DNA from: an uncultured Alphaproteobacteria bacterium
Lineage (GTDB): Bacteria; Pseudomonadota; Alphaproteobacteria; Sphingomonadales; Sphingomonadaceae
Length of the DNA: 64,000 nt
Direction of reading: 5' to 3'
Assembly (NCBI GenBank): GCA_963741605.1
Contig: CAVUII010000002.1
Span: 732,662 to 796,661 of the forward strand
Position 1 is the stretch's first letter; every line of letters begins with the position of its first letter. The translations under genes and the position numbers were made by a program. The notes below the pieces were generated by a model, which saw only the letters and a list, made by a program, of their open reading frames with translations, was not told the origin of the DNA and did no database searches. This document shows positions 20,749 to 56,086 of the stretch, in pieces.

Positions 20749-21171
20749 ATGTCTGTCCATTTTCCCGCTGAAACCTTTTCTACCGTCGCTGACCGTGTTG
20801 ACCTGGCAAAGCACAGCGTTCACGTTGATCGAAATTTCGGTTTGCCATCGCGGCTTTATGTCGCGACCTTTGGACTTTATTTGTCCTTTTTGGCCGTGAT
20901 GACGCTGGGATTTGGTACGCGGGAAATGGCCATCCCGCTGGCGATTTGCGTCGTGTTTCTGGTGATGGCATTTTCGGTGCCACGGCTTTGGGCAAAAATG
21001 GGTCCGGCGAACACCACCAAGCCCATGCGCTGGGACGATTACCAGCGGAAGGGCATTGAAACCTATACCGGAACAGTCAAGGCCCGCGACGCCAATGCTC
21101 AGGTTTTGATCCTGCCCATATTGATCCTGTTTTGGGGTCTCGCTGTGGTCAGCATAACCGCGATCGTTTAA
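20749..21171 (+). CDS. Hypothetical membrane protein (about three hydrophobic segments)
   Basis: AAGGAG RBS; hydrophobic helices; convergent overlap with the Fnr gene. Confidence 0.75.
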   Translation: MSVHFPAETFSTVADRVDLAKHSVHVDRNFGLPSRLYVATFGLYLSFLAVMTLGFGTREMAIPLAICVVFLVMAFSVPRLWAKMGPANTTKPMRWDDYQRKGIETYTGTVKARDANAQVLILPILILFWGLAVVSITAIV

Positions 21172-40499: not shown

Positions 40500-41104
40500 G
40501 CGGTTCGGAAGACCAGACACTTGCGTTCTACGAGAAAGACGCATCCACATATCTGAACGCCAGGCCCGATTTCGTCAGCCCGTTTTTGGATGGCTTTCTT
40601 GACCTGCTGCCTGCGGGTGCCACCATATTAGAGCTCGGGTGCGGCGGTGGAAGGGATGCGCTGCACATGATTGAACGCGGTTTTGATGTCGACCCCACCG
40701 ATGGTGCGGCGTCTATGGTCGAACACGCGGCATTCAATATCGGTCGTCCGGTTCGGCTAATGCGATATAGCGAATTGGACACGCATAACGCTTATGATGC
40801 GGTGGTAGCGATTAATGCGCTGCTGCATGTTCCGCGCAAAGAACTCACTGGAATCCTGATGCGCGTTTGGCACGCGCTAAAACCCGGCGGCTGGCATTTT
40901 GCGAATTATAAGGCCTGCGGTACCGAAGCATTCGACGATTTCGGTCGATACTATAACCATCTAACGCGCGCCGACGTTGAAATGTACTATCGCGCAGCAG
41001 GCAATTGGGAAACCCTCGCATTGGGTGAAACAATGAGTGCCGGACATTTGAACAAGGCGGCTCCTGTCATTACTATCACAGCAAAAAAGGCAAAATTTGC
41101 GTAA
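40496..41104 (+). CDS. Class I SAM-dependent methyltransferase
   Basis: [12 protein letters not shown]; GTGA overlap with rlmN. Confidence 0.88.
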
Positions 41105-41112
41105 TTGCCGCC

Positions 41113-41508
41113 TCAAACCACCAGCACAAAATCCCCATAATCTGCCAGCGCGGCATCATGCGTCAGAAATATCATGCCTTCATGCTTGGCGGTCGCCAGC
41201 AGGAACCGGTCGAACGGATCGCCGTGAAGCGGGGGTAGACCATCGACCGCAGCGGCGTGAATCGGCTGGACAGGCATAGGTTCGATCATCGCCCGTTCCA
41301 TTGCACGCAAGAAGTCGCCACCAGACATTGGCATATCATCGGCGCGGCCCTTGCGAAGCGACCATTTGACAGCGACTTCCCATATTGAAATTGCGCTGAC
41401 GTCAATCGAAATCGCTTCCTCATCCATGATGTGCACGGCGCGTTTCGGCAAGCGCGGGCTCGCCGTCAGCCTCCACAGGATAATGTGCGTGTCAAGGAGT
41501 AGCCTCAA
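41113..41508 (-). CDS. PIN-domain (VapC-like) toxin
   Basis: LLLDTHIILW, SIWEVAVK, HGDPFDRFL. Confidence 0.93.
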   Translation of the reverse strand: MRLLLDTHIILWRLTASPRLPKRAVHIMDEEAISIDVSAISIWEVAVKWSLRKGRADDMPMSGGDFLRAMERAMIEPMPVQPIHAAAVDGLPPLHGDPFDRFLLATAKHEGMIFLTHDAALADYGDFVLVV

Positions 41509-41762
41509 TCCCCTCCCCCAACATTGGCGCGTCCAGCAAACAACGCCTCTATCTCCGGATTCAAGGCATCAATATCGTCAGGAATGACATATTTCCCCTT
41601 CTCCAAGCCCCATTTTATCTTGGGCTTTTTCACCAGCGGCACCAGCCGCGCCGCAGGCACGCCATTTTGCGCGATGATCACTTCGGCCTCCGCGCCAGAT
41701 TTAATGGCAGCTATCAACCGTGAAAGGTGGGTTTTGGCTTCATGGATGTTGACCGTTTGCAT
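41505..41762 (-). CDS. Phd/YefM-family antitoxin
   Basis: MQTVNIHEAKTHLSRLI...VIIAQNGVPAARLVP. Confidence 0.92.
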   Translation of the reverse strand: MQTVNIHEAKTHLSRLIAAIKSGAEAEVIIAQNGVPAARLVPLVKKPKIKWGLEKGKYVIPDDIDALNPEIEALFAGRANVGGGD

Positions 41763-41769
41763 GATGTAG

Positions 41770-41798
41770 AACTTAGTCCAACTTAGTCTATATGTCAA
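41770..41798 (-). promoter_or_regulatory. TA promoter with tandem operator repeats
   Basis: TTGACA-17-TAAGTT on the minus strand; AACTTAGTC at 41770-41778 and 41780-41788; ATG 7 nt after the -10. Confidence 0.6.
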
Positions 41799-41800
41799 TC

Positions 41801-41815
41801 GTTCCCATTTTGTTC
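41801..41815. promoter_or_regulatory. Alphaproteobacterial LexA (SOS) box
   Basis: GTTC-CCATTTT-GTTC is an exact GTTC-N7-GTTC. Confidence 0.7.
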
Positions 41816-41850
41816 TTGCAAAATAGGATTTGCTTTGCTTCATACTATTG

Positions 41851-42591
41851 ATGGAACAGAATCACACACATCTCGCCCCCGCCCCTATCCCTTATGAAGC
41901 TGCCGCGCAGGTGGTGGCGGCTTTTCCCCCTGCCCTTATGCGATCCCGCGCGGATGGGTGGACGGCGGCGCGGCAGCGCGGGTTTTGTGAGGCGCTGGCT
42001 GATTGCGGGTTGGTGCGAGAGGCAGCGGCGGCTGTCGGCCTGTCGGCGCAATCGGCCTATCGGTTGAAACGGCGGGCAGAGGGCAAGGGATTTTCGCTGG
42101 CGTGGGATGCGGCTTTGCTGCTCGCGCGGCAACGGTTGATCGACCTTGCCATCGAACGCGCAGTCGATGGCAATTGCGACGAATATTACAGGGATGGCGA
42201 ACTGGCGGGTGAACACCGCAAAAAGGACGTGCGCCATTTGCTCGCCGCGATTACCAAATTGGAAAATGCCCAAAGCGGCCATGTGATGGTGCACGCAGTC
42301 GCCGACGAATTCGACGCCTTCCTCGATTGCATGGAGGCCGAAGTGCAGGCGCAGGCGACGGCCCCCGATACCGCAGCCAAAAAAGGCAAAGGAAAGAAAG
42401 CCACGTCTCCACTGCAACAGTTTTTTGAGGATCGCGAAGGCGAAGCCGGAATGGATTGGCAGGAATGCGAGCAACTAATGGGCCAGCTGTCACGCCACCG
42501 GCAACTAGCGACGCACAAGATTGGCAGCGGAAAACCAAAGGCCGATGACGATGATTTATGGGGTGAAGGCCCGTTTGACTTTGGACTGTAA
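41851..42591 (+). CDS. Orphan HTH protein resembling phage/GTA terminase small subunits
   Basis: WTAARQRGFCEALA...AAAAVGLSAQSAYRLKRR...FSLAWDAAL...ERAVDG...RDGE pattern. Confidence 0.55.
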   Translation: MEQNHTHLAPAPIPYEAAAQVVAAFPPALMRSRADGWTAARQRGFCEALADCGLVREAAAAVGLSAQSAYRLKRRAEGKGFSLAWDAALLLARQRLIDLAIERAVDGNCDEYYRDGELAGEHRKKDVRHLLAAITKLENAQSGHVMVHAVADEFDAFLDCMEAEVQAQATAPDTAAKKGKGKKATSPLQQFFEDREGEAGMDWQECEQLMGQLSRHRQLATHKIGSGKPKADDDDLWGEGPFDFGL

Positions 42592-42886
42592 CCGGGCTGT
42601 CTGGGGGGATATTCGGATTAAAAGTGTCTGAAATTCAATAATAAATCACATAATTACAGTATGTTAATAATACTTGCGGACGCGGGAACCCGTGGCCGGG
42701 AGCCAATTTTTCGTTCAACATCGTTTGCACAAGCAAGACAAGCAATCCATGGATTCGCGCCTTCGCGGGTATGCCATTTTTGGACGTCCGTTATCGCAGG
42801 CAACGTACAACACCCCCCACCAGACACTGTAACCCTGTGTAACCTTTCGGCTTAAAATAGTCACATTTTCATAGGAACGACACGCA

Positions 42887-42928
42887 AACAAAAACCCCGC
42901 CGAAATCGCTTTCGGCGGGGTTTTTGTT
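42887..42928. terminator. Bidirectional terminator downstream of rpoC
   Basis: AACAAAAACCCCGCCGAAA-TCGC-TTTCGGCGGGGTTTTTGTT. Confidence 0.9.
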
Positions 42929-42946
42929 CATGTGGTGGACGAAGGA

Positions 42947-45900
42947 TTATGCTTCGTCGCCAGCGGGTTCCAGATCATCAGTGGTGAATTCTTCACCGAT
43001 CACTTTGCCCAATGGATCGTCGCCCATCGCAGCTTCGGGGCCTTGTGCCAGTTCCGCTGCATGCTCTTCCGCTGCCGTTTCCGGAGCGATCAGGCTTTCC
43101 TGCAGCTTCTTGTAACTGGCGCGCAAGGCCGCGTCACGGCTGCTGGCGGTTACGCGCATACGGTTCATGGCAGAGCCAGTACCCGCAGGAATCAGTCGAC
43201 CCACGATCACGTTTTCCTTCAGGCCGGTCAGAATGTCCTTCTTACCTTCAACCGCCGCCTGCGTCAGCACGCGAGTGGTTTCCTGGAAAGACGCCGCCGA
43301 GATGAATGAACGCGTTTGCAGCGATGCTTTGGTGATCCCCAAAAGAACCGGCTTACCAACCGCTGGCTTTTGGTTTGGAGCCAGCTTTGCGTTGATGGCA
43401 TCCATTTCTTCACGGTCAACCTGTTCGGCGGCCAGCAAAGTCGTATCGCCGCCATCGGTGATTTCAACCTTTTGCAGCATCTGGCGAACAATCGTTTCGA
43501 TGTGCTTATCGTTGATTTTCACGCCCTGCAGACGGTAAACTTCCTGAATTTCCGCAACCAGATATTCGGCCAATGCCTCTACACCCATCACTTCAAGGAT
43601 GTCGTGCAGATCAGGCGAACCCGCGATCAGGCTGTCGCCCTTGCGCACAAGATCGCCTTCCTGAACGTCAAGAACCTTGGACTTTGGAATCAGATATTCA
43701 ATCCGATCGCCTTCTTCCGGAACAATCGCAATTTTGCGCTTGGCCTTGTAATCACGGACGAATTCAATGCGGCCCGAAATCTTGGCGATGACCGCGCAAT
43801 CCTTTGGCTTACGCGCTTCGAACAGCTCGGCAACGCGCGGCAGACCACCGGTGATGTCGCGGGTCTTGGCGGATTCGCGGATCACACGAGCGAGAACATC
43901 GCCTGCCTGAACCTCTGCACCATCTTCAACCGACAACATCGTGCCAACAGCCAGCAGATACCGTGCCGCTTCGCCGCTTGTATCGTCAAGCAGGGTCAGG
44001 CGGGGACGCAAATCTTCTTTCTTGGCACGGGCGATACCACGGAATTCGGTAACGACGCGCTGGGCAATGCCTGTTGCTTCGTCGGTCTGTTCGATCAGCG
44101 TTTGCCCCTCGATCAGATCCTGGAATTTCACGATACCGGCTTTTTCGGTGATAACCGGCATGGTGAATGGATCCCATTCCGCCAGACGGTCGCCGATGCT
44201 TACCTTGTCGCCTTCAGCGTAATGCAAGGTCGCGCCAAATGGCAGACGGTGCACTTCCATCTCGCGACCTTCATGGCCGACGATCACCAGATCGCCGCTG
44301 CGCGCCATGGCGACACGGCGGCCGCGTTTGTCGACAATCGTCGGCAGATCGCGATAGTTGACGACACCATCAGCCGACGCATCAAGATTTGATGTTTCGT
44401 TCAACTGCGCCGCACCACCAATGTGGAAGGTACGCATGGTCAACTGGGTTCCGGGTTCACCGATGGACTGTGCGGCAATGACGCCGACAGCTTCACCGAT
44501 GTTAACCGGCGTACCCCGGGCCAGATCGCGGCCATAGCAGGTGCCGCAAACACCAACCTTGGATTCGCACACCAATGGGCTGCGGATCTTCAGGGCTTGC
44601 AGGCCGATTTCCTCAATCGCGGTGATTGCGGGTTCGTCCAGCAAGGTCCCCGTTGGGAACAGCACCTTGTTGTCTGCACCGATAATGTCCTCTGCCGTGG
44701 TACGGCCCAACACACGCTCACCGAGCGATGCGATGGTCGAGCCACCTTGGACGATCGAACGCATTTCCAGCGCCCGTTCGGTACCGCAGTCGATTTCGAC
44801 AATCGTGCAGTCCTGCGAAACGTCGACCAAACGACGGGTCAAATAACCCGAGTTTGCCGTTTTCAACGCGGTATCGGCCAGACCCTTACGGGCACCATGG
44901 GTCGAGTTGAAATATTCGAGAACCGTCAGACCTTCTTTAAAGTTCGAAATGATCGGGGTTTCGATGATTTCGCCCGAAGGTTTGGCCATCAGCCCGCGCA
45001 TTCCGCCCAGCTGCTTCATCTGCGCTGGCGAACCACGTGCGCCGGAGTGCGCCATCATGTAGATCGAGTTAATGGGCGCTTCGCGGCCATGTTCGTCCTT
45101 TGGTGTGGCTTTCAACTTGTCCATCATCGCGTTGGCAACACGATCACCACAGCCTGACCAGGCATCGATGACTTTGTTGTATTTTTCCTGCTGCGTGATC
45201 AGGCCGTCCTGATATTGCTGTTCGAAATCAGCAACAATCGCCTTGGTTTCGGCAACCAGACCATCCTTTTCTTCAGGGATGATCATGTCGTCTTTACCAA
45301 AGGAAATGCCCGCCTTGAACGCGTGGCGGAAACCAAGGCCCATGATCGCATCGGCGAACAAGACCGTGTCTTTCTGGCCGGTGTGGCGGTAAACCTGATC
45401 GATAACGTCGCCGATTTCCTTTTTGGTCAAAAGGCGGTTTACGGTTTCAAAAGGCACCTTGTGCGATTTAGGCAGGCATTCGCCCAACAGCATACGACCC
45501 GGCGTAGTTTCGAAACGCACCATGCGTTCCACACCATCTTCGCCGGTTTGCGGCACGCGGCTGGTGATTTTGGAGTGCAGCGTAACCGCACCCACTTCCA
45601 GCGCCTGATGCACTTCGGCCATATCCGAAATCAGCATGCCTTCGCCGGGTTCGCCTTCGCGGTCCATCGACAGATAATAAAGACCCAACACCATATCCTG
45701 CGAAGGAACGATGATCGGCTTACCATTGGCTGGCGACAGGATGTTGTTGGTTGACATCATCAATACGCGCGCTTCCAGCTGGGCTTCCAGCGAAAGCGGA
45801 ACGTGAACGGCCATTTGGTCACCGTCAAAGTCGGCGTTAAACGCAGCGCAGACCAATGGGTGAAGCTGAATGGCCTTCCCTTCGATCAGGACGGGTTCAA

Positions 45901-54213: not shown

Positions 54214-54228
54214 GAACATCGATAGAAC
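54214..54228. promoter_or_regulatory. Alphaproteobacterial LexA (SOS) box upstream of the methyltransferase
   Basis: GAAC-ATCGATA-GAAC is an exact GAAC-N7-GAAC, between TTGACG and CATAAT. Confidence 0.72.
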
Positions 54229-54242
54229 ATAATCAGAGAGTT

Positions 54243-55196
54243 ATGGACTCTATCGAATTTTGCGCAGGCGCTGGTGGACAAGCGCTCGGACTGGAACAGG
54301 CTGGTTTCCGTCACAATGCACTTATTGAAATTGAGCCGGATTATGCAGCTACACTGCGGCTCAACCGTCCAAATTGGGATGTTCGGTGCGCTGATATGAA
54401 TCAGTTTGATGGACGACCATTTTTTGGAACAGAACTATTTGCGGGCGGGCTGCCTTGCCCGCCTTTCTCTATTGCTGGAAAGCAATTGGGTGAGCGGGAC
54501 GAACGGAACCTGTTTCCTGCGGCCATCCGCCTAATTGACGAAATTCGGCCCAAAGCGATTATGATCGAAAATGTCCGTGGCTTTTTGTCCGCAGTATTTG
54601 AGGATTATCGCAACGGGCTGAAAAGCCAACTCGAAAAACTCGGTTATAAAACCGATTGGCGATTGTTGAACGCATCCGACTTTGGCGTTCCCCAGCTCCG
54701 ACCTCGCGTGGTGATTGTGGCGATCAGAAAGGATTATGTCGATGCGTTCGACTGGCCGACAGCAAATCCACATAACCCGCCTACGGTCGGCGAAACACTG
54801 CGGGACCTCATGGGTGCCAATGGCTGGTTAGGCGCCAAAAATTGGGCCAAACGCGCAAATGATATTGCTCCCACCATTGTTGGTGGGTCGAAAAAACATG
54901 GCGGGCCAGACCTTGGCCCCACCCGGGCTCGTGCTGCTTGGGCGACACTGGGCGTTGAAGGCAAAAGCCTGTTTAACGAGGCTCCATCTTCGGACTTTGT
55001 CGGTGCGCCACGCCTGACTGTCCGCATGGTCGCGCGGCTGCAAGGCTTTCCAGACAGTTGGCAGTTCCATGGTGGTAAAACTGCTAGTTACCGCCAAGTT
55101 GGCAACGCTTTCCCTCCGCCTGTTGCACGTGCTGTTGCCAAAAATTTGCAAATCGCTTTGTCAGTGCAAAAACACTTTCTGGTCAAAGCTGCGTGA
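54243..55196 (+). CDS. DNA (cytosine-5) methyltransferase, M.NaeI-like
   Basis: FCAGAGG, GGLPCPPFS, ENVRG, PQLRPR, QVGNAFPP. Confidence 0.95.
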   Translation: MDSIEFCAGAGGQALGLEQAGFRHNALIEIEPDYAATLRLNRPNWDVRCADMNQFDGRPFFGTELFAGGLPCPPFSIAGKQLGERDERNLFPAAIRLIDEIRPKAIMIENVRGFLSAVFEDYRNGLKSQLEKLGYKTDWRLLNASDFGVPQLRPRVVIVAIRKDYVDAFDWPTANPHNPPTVGETLRDLMGANGWLGAKNWAKRANDIAPTIVGGSKKHGGPDLGPTRARAAWATLGVEGKSLFNEAPSSDFVGAPRLTVRMVARLQGFPDSWQFHGGKTASYRQVGNAFPPPVARAVAKNLQIALSVQKHFLVKAA

Positions 55197-56086
55197 ACCT
55201 GTTTCCCGATAGCGGTTATCGGGCACTGTCTTCCGAACATCCTGACCATCAGGAGCTTTCGGAATTGGAAGGCGATCTTTTGAATGCCGTTGGCGGCAAA
55301 CTTCTCTTCGAAGAAAAACTCCGCTCCTTTTTCCGTTCGGCGATTGACGAAGTGATCGACACCGCACGGACTGGAAGGTTTTTTCTCAAGGACTTGGAAA
55401 AGACCGAAAAGACTTATCTTGGCACAAAATTCGAAAATCTGCTTCGTGATTGGTTGCAAGTTCCCCGAGGGGTGGTACTTGATCTTCATATTGGCGGCAG
55501 GGAAGTTGATGTCAAATCGACAACAGGTGGCAAATCCGATTGGATGATCCCGCGAGAAGCAATCGACCAATTTTGTGTCCTACTCCGTGTCAATGAAGTC
55601 CTTTCCAAATGTGCAGTTGGGCTCGTGAGGGCGAGGCCTGATTATCTGCGGAGCAGCGTTAATCAGGATAAGAAAACATCGTTTTCTGCGGCTGGTACTG
55701 CGAACATTTGGTGGCTCGTTTCCGACTTTGATTATACACCAAACTTTTGGCTCCTAATTGACAAGGAGTTGCGAGAAAAAATCATGCTAAGCGGCAAGGG
55801 TACCAGACGGTTGGCGACCCTTTTCGAAAATTGCCTCGGCATGCCGATCTCTCGTGTTCAGGTTGCAGCAGTTGCAGCGCAAGACGACTTTATGAAGCGC
55901 CTCAGGAAAAACGGCGGGGCACGTGATATTCTCGCCCCGAAAGGCATTGCTATCCTATATTCAGAAACAGACCGAGCGTTGATGCGCCAATTGGGTTTGA
56001 ACTTTGGCTATCGAGAATTCATGTCGCATCGTGCGGTTGATGCCAAACAAGCAAAGTTGCTGCGTGATGCGGGAAAAATCGACTAG
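55193..56086 (+). CDS. NaeI-family type II restriction endonuclease
   Basis: RTGRF...LEKTEKTYLGT, VDVK, WMIP; C-terminal AQDDFMKRLRKNGGARDIL matches the NaeI pattern. Confidence 0.85.
   Translation: MNLFPDSGYRALSSEHPDHQELSELEGDLLNAVGGKLLFEEKLRSFFRSAIDEVIDTARTGRFFLKDLEKTEKTYLGTKFENLLRDWLQVPRGVVLDLHIGGREVDVKSTTGGKSDWMIPREAIDQFCVLLRVNEVLSKCAVGLVRARPDYLRSSVNQDKKTSFSAAGTANIWWLVSDFDYTPNFWLLIDKELREKIMLSGKGTRRLATLFENCLGMPISRVQVAAVAAQDDFMKRLRKNGGARDILAPKGIAILYSETDRALMRQLGLNFGYREFMSHRAVDAKQAKLLRDAGKID

Follow-up and report, generated by a model that had tools for sequence, protein, structure and literature searches.

Small terminase subunits (TerS) with a helix-turn-helix (HTH) core, grouped in PHROG 4044, are known from phages such as PhiJL001 (gp58), Pseudomonas phage Ab18/PaMx28, and Roseobacter phage RDJL Phi 2; in PhiJL001, the annotated large terminase gene, gp59, begins within the end of the gp58 gene. 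Outside complete phages, TerS proteins occur in staphylococcal pathogenicity islands (SaPI) and phage-inducible chromosomal islands (PICI), which have a helper relationship, and the SaPI terS gene is reportedly LexA-controlled, an observation attributed to Ubeda et al. in 2007. Among the alphaproteobacteria, domesticated phage-derived DNA-binding proteins include GafA/GafYZ and g1 of the Rhodobacter capsulatus gene transfer agent (RcGTA), the latter lying directly ahead of the GTA large terminase. LexA influences RcGTA production (PMC9638019); the pac site of SPP1 consists of sets of direct repeats spanning promoters and the terS start (PMC4737164), and the SOS box of Caulobacter is GTTCN7GTTC (PMC9578287). 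Here, we analyzed a 64,000-nt stretch (the window) of contig CAVUII010000002.1 from an uncultured alphaproteobacterium of the family Sphingomonadaceae (assembly GCA_963741605.1), in which an open reading frame (ORF) designated X encodes a small-terminase-like protein preceded by an SOS box and followed by phased direct repeats.

X shares the core of HTH, long helix, and beta-hairpin with the HTH-type phage TerS proteins and, as in phage TerS/pac systems, has phased direct repeats beside the gene. It differs from them in that no large terminase (TerL) gene follows it, in lying outside any phage or prophage, in its absence from phage records (tblastn), in its unrelated and variable C-terminus, in its chromosomal vertical inheritance, and in having a special promoter of its own. 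Like the SaPI/PICI proteins, X is TerS-like, stands under a predicted LexA operator, and is found outside a complete phage; however, it has no island context (no int, rep, or capsid-remodeling genes), the taxon and the operator type differ, and most members of the X family carry no SOS box. RcGTA g1 and GafA/GafYZ are likened to X by description only, and unlike g1, X has no large terminase next to it and no GTA gene in the window. With the SOS regulon (uvrA, uvrD, and the Caulobacter LexA targets), X shares the GTTC-N7-GTTC operator at its promoter, whereas its product falls into no known repair, mutagenesis, or division-control class. From these comparisons, X is a domesticated terminase-type DNA recognizer, predicted to be under LexA; it is homologous to TerS but does not qualify as a functional TerS, because it has no TerL neighbor and is not on a phage.

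The explanation that we favor, with moderate confidence, is that X would be a site-specific DNA-binding protein of terminase origin, kept off by LexA, with the repeats 3′ of its gene as docking site. The significance of the box and of the repeats comes from the comparison with relatives and not from the statistics of the window alone: at the level of sequence, this comparison demonstrates that the box is conserved and enriched and that the repeats are linked to the gene, have a fixed orientation, and co-vary with the recognition helix. The main features, by position in the window, are as follows.

41801–41815, + strand: SOS (LexA) box GTTCCCATTTTGTTC, direct repeat GTTC-N7-GTTC, exact match
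41816–41850, + strand: conserved promoter block, with TTGCAA at 41816–21, AATAGGAT at 41822–29, and TTCATA at 41839–44, then ATG
41851–42591, + strand: ORF X, 246 aa, HTH protein resembling small terminases; C-terminal half variable, tail DDDDLWGEGPFDFGL
41959–42270, + strand: conserved family domain, aa 37–140 (PHROG 4044, HHalign, BFVD Foldseek, and AF2)
42586–42593, + strand: CTGTAACC overlapping the stop codon (TAA, 42589–91), probable relic of the repeat element
42820–42850, + strand: phased repeat element CCAGACA-CTGTAACC-CT-GTGTAACC-TTTCGG, putative docking site of X

A terminase-like domain in a chromosomal family

The conserved domain of X comprises an HTH (aa 39–74) with the recognition helix at aa 66–74 (AQSAYRLKR), a long helix (aa 76–106), a beta-hairpin (aa 109–123), and a further helix (aa 127–139). 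PHROG 4044, annotated as “terminase small subunit,” matched residues 37–125 of X with an E-value of 6e−7, and when 33 diverse relatives were scanned one by one, all 33 matched it (best E-value, 1.3e−22). Alignment of the family-domain profile with PhiJL001 gp58 in HHalign gave a probability of 92% and an E-value of 5.6e−7 over 91 columns, which run from the HTH through the long helix and hairpin to the following helix. The AF2 models, with a pLDDT of 82.6 for full-length X and 90.7 for aa 30–176, showed the same HTH, a 30-residue helix, the beta-hairpin, and further helices, and in a Foldseek search of the predicted viral structures of BFVD, the top matches were TerS proteins (E-values of 7e−5 to 2e−3). 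These results show, at least by profile and model comparison, that the N-terminal ~105–130 aa of X are homologous to the phage TerS family, and they bear out the original prediction that the N-terminal ~130 aa resemble an HTH-type TerS. Pfam gave only subthreshold hits to HTH_28, HTH_29, and HTH_23 in X, no NCBIfam model matched it, and a sequence-profile search of the PDB returned nothing.

The C-terminal half of X is, as judged from its sequence, unrelated to TerS and varies strongly among relatives. In the orthologue group it ends in an acidic and aromatic tail, which in X is DDDDLWGEGPFDFGL (aa 234–246, 42550–42588). In the orthologues P0002–P0010, the tail takes the form DDDIWSDWDRDPFDxxxF, and distant family members have no such tail; by analogy, it may recall partner-binding tails such as the C-terminus of SSB.

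A first search returned 89 homologues of X, all named “hypothetical.” Scanning one genome per species yielded at least 551 loci, essentially all in the Sphingomonadales, and an exhaustive HMMER search found 11,869 cluster representatives at an E-value of ≤1e−3 and 5,048 at ≤1e−10. A metagenome scan with a single protein gave no confirmed locus. The domain, used as a tblastn query, had no match among 50,697 phage records and none among 72,556 plasmids. Around ~170 family loci, we saw neither TerL nor portal or capsid genes, and no neighboring gene was conserved family-wide across 161 loci. The genomic context differs by clade: family members lie directly downstream of nrdB (21 loci), uvrA (12 loci), and uvrD (9 loci) in different lineages, and another subset adjoins DUF952. 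Some genomes have several paralogues, such as L002 and L005 in one metagenome-assembled genome (MAG) and the two copies in L028. X is thus a chromosomal, vertically inherited member of a huge Sphingomonadales family, in a housekeeping context that is neither phage, prophage, satellite, nor GTA encoded, and it is not directly upstream of a TerL in a packaging module. A one-off domestication of the SaPI kind did not hold up, since the family is huge and chromosomal and most of its members have no LexA box. A search of a paper library found no description of the family, its CCTACA promoter motif, its repeat cassette, or an SOS-linked terminase-like sphingomonad gene, and the architecture of the cassette across the family seems to be new to the literature.

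Two further observations concern the architecture of family members. In some of them (P0030, P0045, P0064, P0210–P0213, and others), the terminase-like domain occurs twice in tandem. One SOS-boxed clade has a family ORF that lacks a stop codon and reads in frame into a FadB/FadJ-type gene for an enoyl-CoA hydratase/3-hydroxyacyl-CoA dehydrogenase, giving a product of ~1,000 aa (L016 3893–6901, L041 4001–6991, and L086); the two may be truly fused, or a stop codon may be missing from the high-GC sequence.

Homology to TerS without any partner genes could also mean that X is all that remains, decaying and without function, of a packaging module from a prophage or GTA. This is hardly credible, given that hundreds of species keep the ORF undamaged, with 14 residues invariant throughout, that the promoter, operator, and 3′ element are conserved at 50–60% protein identity, and that the synteny beside rlmN is stable. 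RNA sequencing contigs of Sphingosinicella microcystinivorans also cover a homologue, with no transcript ends resolved, which is weak evidence against decay. Among sequencing runs, the window sequence was found in metagenomic DNA only and in no RNA run, and a search of RNA runs with the Novosphingobium naphthalenivorans homologue (L040) gave only metagenomic poly-A libraries, which were not used.

The LexA box and the promoter of X

The exact GTTC-N7-GTTC that had been reported between the divergent Phd/PIN pair and X was confirmed at 41801–41815. Within the window, the motif occurs four times against 1.9 expected, which is at chance level. In a survey of 161 homologous loci (0.93 Mb), 46 exact GTTC/GAAC-N7 boxes were found. 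Of these, 25 are located 60–260 nt upstream of the codon for Trp37, a zone that makes up 3.3% of the sequence surveyed and in which 0.72 boxes were expected. The boxed loci, which come from MAGs or metagenome contigs, share no neighbors and fall into several clades, and the exact box is present in 17 of the 91 non-redundant members, or about one lineage in five. Roughly half of the exact boxes in the family are in the GAAC orientation and overlap codons 2–6 (ATG GAA CAx xxx xxG AAC; M-E-Q/H-x-x-N), but the non-coding boxes in the GTTC orientation still occur in at least 10 different contexts. In the Sphingomonadales loci, GTTC-N6-TGTTC is also found just upstream of uvrD (L127 351–365 and L055 241–255) and uvrA (L009 298–312).

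The orthologue group of the window comprises nine loci (the eight further loci are labelled L001 and L161–L168), with the typical gene order His_Phos_1, x, RlmN, an optional PIN-Phd pair, X, a CMAS-family methyltransferase, 4HBT_3, and AraC. In these nine, the box is exact in five, has one mismatch in three, and has been lost in one, and it always abuts the same promoter block. They have a 45-bp block in common, GTTC-N7-GTTC followed by TTGCAAnnTAGGATTTGCTTTGCT and ending in ATGGAA, in which TTGCAAnnTAGGATTTGCTTTGCT is present in all nine, and the sequence farther upstream is unrelated. X therefore has, as far as sequence can tell, what defines an SOS regulon member, namely, an operator at the promoter that is conserved in orthologues. 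The box shows the behavior expected of a genuine SOS operator for X, and we infer that LexA probably binds it and that X is probably induced by DNA damage.

Alternatively, the box might have arisen by chance, or it might control the divergent Phd/PIN toxin–antitoxin (TA) operon instead of X. The unremarkable motif count of the window would fit the former; for the latter, the box is only 2 nt from the −35 element TTGACA of the TA operon, and the TA pair with its operator accompanies X in five of the nine orthologous loci (window, L001, L162, L167, and L168). Nevertheless, the box region persists in orthologues that lack the TA pair (exact in L163, with one mismatch in L161 and L166), and the spacing between the box and the TA −35 element ranges from 0 to 28 nt across the orthologues, whereas the distance from the box to X and its promoter is invariant. 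Unrelated family members elsewhere also have the box at the same relative position. We consequently consider this alternative very unlikely, and because of its fixed position relative to X, its variable position relative to the TA promoter, and its retention where the TA pair is missing, the box is assigned to X.

The ATG of X is preceded by no Shine–Dalgarno sequence, and a sigma-70 scan found no + strand promoter for X. The best reading of the + strand is TTGCAA-N17-TTCATA-N6-ATG, and in the nine orthologues, the spacing TTGCAA-N17-hexamer-N6/7-ATGGAA, with ATGGAA taken as the start, is constant, which suggests that the X mRNA may be leaderless. AATAGGAT corresponds to the CCTACA motif of the family in reverse, (T/A)(G/A)TAGGA; alternatively, it can be read as a −10 element, TAGGAT, which would place the box over the −35 element and the spacer.

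The CCTACA motif is not peculiar to the window. In its longer form, (T)TTCCTACA, it lies 40–300 nt upstream of Trp37 in 104 of the 161 family members, against 4.8 expected. In L041, L079, and L100, CCTACA occupies the −35 position, followed by N17, a TAnnnT-like hexamer, N5, and ATG, a spacing that implies probable leaderless mRNAs in these loci as well. In most clades, the spacer contains the palindrome (T)AACC-N5-6-GGTT(A), and the SOS clades have the LexA box beside or after CCTACA instead; in L001, copies of the motif in both orientations flank the box. The recurrence of (T)TTCCTACA implies that a dedicated sigma factor, activator, or repressor may serve the whole family.

Direct repeats downstream of the gene and the recognition helix

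The two copies of TGTAACC that had been reported downstream of X are present at 42828 and 42838, 10 bp apart, and a third copy, which had been missed, lies at 42587 and overlaps the stop codon of X. In the element at 42820–42850, the TGTAACC units (42827–42844) form two head-to-tail copies with a 10-bp period. TGTAACC alone is mildly enriched in the window (seven copies against 2.9 expected), and TGTAACC-N3-TGTAACC is unique there even with two mismatches allowed (0.11 expected). All nine orthologues retain CAGACA-nTGTAAmC-N3-TGTAAmC-TTyCGG at 1–297 nt after the stop codon. In the window, a spacer of ~240 nt (42595–42819), with an AT-rich stretch at 42620–42680 and a palindrome resembling repetitive extragenic palindromic (REP) sequences, has been inserted between X and the repeats, and in orthologues without such inserts, the repeats directly follow the stop codon. 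Because the elements of L001, L167, and L168 start at the stop codon or within ~5 nt of it, the CTGTAACC at the stop codon of X is probably what is left of the repeat element at the ancestral site.

The original prediction had made its case depend on an association of the repeat with homologues, and the association turned out to be far broader than it had supposed. The view that the repeat is restricted to the clade of the window, whose matrix gave no hits elsewhere, was rejected, as nearly every clade has a unit of its own directly 3′ of the stop codon: GTGACCTTT in two to four copies, TGTGAACTT, CTGACCTT, CGGACTTT, GTTACCTT, GTGTGAAG, TGTCAAAA, CTAAACTT, and CTAAAAAC. The usual period is 9 bp and the usual ending TTYCG(C)G, with two to four units arranged head to tail, and paralogues of a single MAG carry different ones (CTAAACTT in L002 and CTAAAAAC in L005). 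A tandem 8-mer was found in 82 of 155 downstream windows, compared with 20% of control windows, and the generic repeat pattern was ~21-fold enriched after the stop codons of the family. Tandem 9–10-bp units were on the gene strand in 57 loci and on the other strand in five, whereas the control windows gave four and two.

Co-variation between the repeats and the protein was assessed in 62 non-redundant members by comparing pairwise unit distances with protein divergence, using 300 Mantel permutations. Unit distance was correlated with the divergence of aa 53–74 (rho = 0.21), a value reached by none of the 300 permutations, and in a sliding-window analysis, the peak was at aa 63–74 (rho ≈ 0.2, again 0 of 300). 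The segments aa 37–52, 76–106, and 107–135 showed no correlation with the unit (rho, −0.03 to 0.07), and sliding 8-aa windows outside approximately aa 55–86 gave rho values of −0.10 to 0.07, except for 0.14 at aa 31–38. This co-variation with the recognition helix is the main argument for our inference that X itself probably reads the repeats.

A possible but unlikely alternative is that X does not bind the repeats. They would instead be the promoter or operator of the next gene, signal a 3′ end or termination, or be bound by another factor, and X would be a conventional transcription factor with targets elsewhere. ECF-type (extracytoplasmic function) −35 elements read GAACTT/GTAACC, which the units resemble, and in seven of the nine orthologous loci, a co-directional gene, mostly of the CMAS family, starts 40–160 nt after the repeats. 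The upstream palindrome that the family shares, moreover, stays the same whatever the recognition helix, so other factors evidently act on the cassettes. Nevertheless, the element stays with X when the next gene changes (a CMAS-family methyltransferase in five orthologues, ArsC in one, IspA in one, and a convergent rpoC in the window), its orientation is fixed relative to X, and the co-variation peaks on the recognition helix of X. Because the next gene is convergent in the window and in several clades (apparently so in the Sphingomonas clade: L031, L085, and L098), the element is not simply the promoter of the next gene. We likewise rejected sigma-70 and ECF promoters as readings of the repeats, because no −10 element is conserved after the units, and an RNA hairpin, because no structure other than the terminator was seen.

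An alternating (CG)n tract ending in GTAGG was also observed between the stop codon and the repeats, within the first ~25 nt, in two separate clades (L036, L052, L053, L090, L103, L031, L085, and L098); it could form a hairpin or Z-DNA. Several sphingomonad loci have the REP-like GC palindrome (of the GGATTCGCGCCTTCGCGGGTATGCC type) between their genes.

The neighborhood and the proposed role of X

Around X, the gene order is dnaN, phosphatase, rlmN, methyltransferase, the Phd/PIN TA pair, X, convergent rpoC, and rpoB. The remaining features of the locus are as follows.

41113–41508, − strand: PIN toxin (Pfam PF01850, E-value 3.5e−8)
41505–41762, − strand: Phd antitoxin, PhdYeFM (Pfam PF02604, E-value 2.2e−8)
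41798–41793, − strand: −35 element TTGACA of the TA promoter/operator, followed by N17 and TAAGTT, with the direct repeat AACTTAGTC ×2 at 41770–41788
42748–42776, no strand assigned: REP-like palindrome, with blastn matches in L161, L035, L097, and L027
42887–42928, no strand assigned: bidirectional intrinsic terminator, a 19-bp stem between A and T runs (−41 kcal/mol, z = −5.8)

The Phd and PIN ORFs adjoin with a 4-nt overlap and qualify as a type II TA pair. The TAAGTT of their operon is followed by ~7 nt and the ATG (41762–41760), so that the operon looks leaderless, and the −10 element is embedded in the tandem AACTTAGTC ×2, which is probably the antitoxin operator. The terminator at 42887–42928 presumably serves both rpoC, on the − strand, and the X transcript. 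Any promoter in the repeat region would give an RNA of only ~50–60 nt before this terminator (42860–42928), and no Rfam family matched that RNA; an Rfam scan of 41000–43200 gave only subthreshold matches, all on the rpoC terminator. No second paralogue of the X family was found in the window, and a match to the generic repeat motif at 20865 falls inside a coding region. Elsewhere in the window, a NaeI-type restriction–modification pair adjoins rplJ/rplL (C5 cytosine methylase, 54243–55196; NaeI-family endonuclease, 55193–56086), and a GAAC-N7-GAAC box, GAACATCGATAGAAC, lies at 54214–54228, 14 nt ahead of the methylase ATG. In L071, a C5 methylase unrelated to this one also has a box, GAACAACTCATGAAC (L071 328–342), 14 nt ahead of its start; these boxes could reflect chance or SOS control of the methylases.

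X had been described as an orphan with no large terminase, capsid, or integrase gene nearby, and this description was upheld. The annotation of the neighbors agreed with it, and tblastn searches with a phage large terminase and with the neighboring gp60 (a 62-kDa structural protein) found nothing in the window or in any locus. No integrase, replication, or helper-interference gene was found within 6 kb on either side of X or in the orthologue loci.

These findings bear directly on the role that had been proposed for X, that of a packaging-specificity or anti-phage factor. As a packaging factor, X would be induced by the SOS response and would recruit the TerL of a resident GTA or helper prophage to pac-like TGTAACC repeats, leading to the packaging of neighboring chromosomal DNA or acting as a decoy against phages. 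The true homology to TerS, which includes the region after the HTH, is in keeping with such a role, as are the pac-like repeat array in cis beside the gene, the LexA control reported for SaPI terS, and the acidic and aromatic tail of the orthologue group, which could be a partner-binding peptide. However, no TerL, portal, or capsid gene accompanies the family at the ~170 loci, and the phage and plasmid records contain no match by tblastn. PADLOC-DB 2.0 gave no hit to X, PIN, or Phd at an E-value of ≤0.01. A common TerL partner should have conserved the C-termini, which are highly variable, and most members are not under SOS control; in addition, PMC9638019 describes GTA packaging as random. 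The packaging or anti-phage role is thus not supported, and we regard it as decidedly improbable. A related idea, that the cassettes are chromosomal pac-like modules in which each paralogue marks a site for the terminase of a resident GTA or prophage, or which titrate the terminase of an invading phage as a defense, also seems rather far-fetched. Because of the missing terminase and phage context, the unconserved C-termini, and the predominance of members without SOS control, a local regulatory or architectural role is more likely, such as a roadblock, control of the 3′ end, or control of flanking transcription.

In the explanation that we favor, that of a LexA-repressed protein docking on its own 3′ repeats, the family cassette typically consists of a special promoter, an ORF with a terminase-like HTH/oligomerization domain and a variable C-terminus, and two to four head-to-tail 9–10-bp repeats ending in TTYCG. 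In the promoter, (T)TTCCTACA at the −35 position is followed after ~17 nt by a −10-like hexamer and after another 5–7 nt by the ATG, and either the palindrome or, in about one lineage in five, an SOS box serves as the predicted operator. LexA, bound to the GTTC-N7-GTTC that abuts or overlaps the core promoter, would keep X off, and the removal of LexA upon DNA damage would allow X to be made. X would then form oligomers by way of the long helix and the beta-hairpin, as in small terminases, whose central helices build a ring, and its HTH motifs would occupy the phased TGTAACC units, much as TerS occupies pac repeats beside its own gene.

Several observations weigh against this explanation. The leaderless reading of the promoter would put the box upstream of the best −35 element, which is less classical for repression. 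The boxes in the GAAC orientation are confounded with coding sequence, and related loci are not independent of one another. The Foldseek comparison with TerS structures that the original prediction had proposed succeeded for the predicted viral structures, in which TerS ranked top, but not for solved ones: with full-length and domain models, the PDB gave nothing significant (best E-value, 0.5), and the recurring TerS entries 3zqq, 7joq, 4dzj, and 3hef (SF6, NV1, and Sf6; TM of 0.26–0.48) are weak matches. The co-variation is modest, and some of the automatically called units are noise. In a large Sphingorhabdus/Erythrobacter-like clade, whose recognition helix reads NMSxEGAY, the promoter motif is present while obvious repeats are missing, and with a co-directional gene following the repeats in most orthologous loci, they may act as a promoter or operator there.

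If the cassettes did serve as pac-like modules, SOS-boxed members, for example, the one beside rpoBC, would trigger damage-induced, site-directed transduction of the flanking chromosome. If X is instead the LexA-repressed, repeat-binding protein that we favor, it would represent a new class of SOS-induced protein in the alphaproteobacterial SOS response, with a possible tie between DNA damage and packaging or gene transfer in sphingomonads. The family, with >5,000 clusters at an E-value of ≤1e−10, has no name and no Pfam or NCBIfam model; it would be a case of a phage DNA-recognition module taken over by a whole bacterial order in thousands of variants, each with repeats in cis and all under a common unusual promoter, and would provide a natural library of paired HTH proteins and repeats for studying how TerS-type rings or filaments read DNA.

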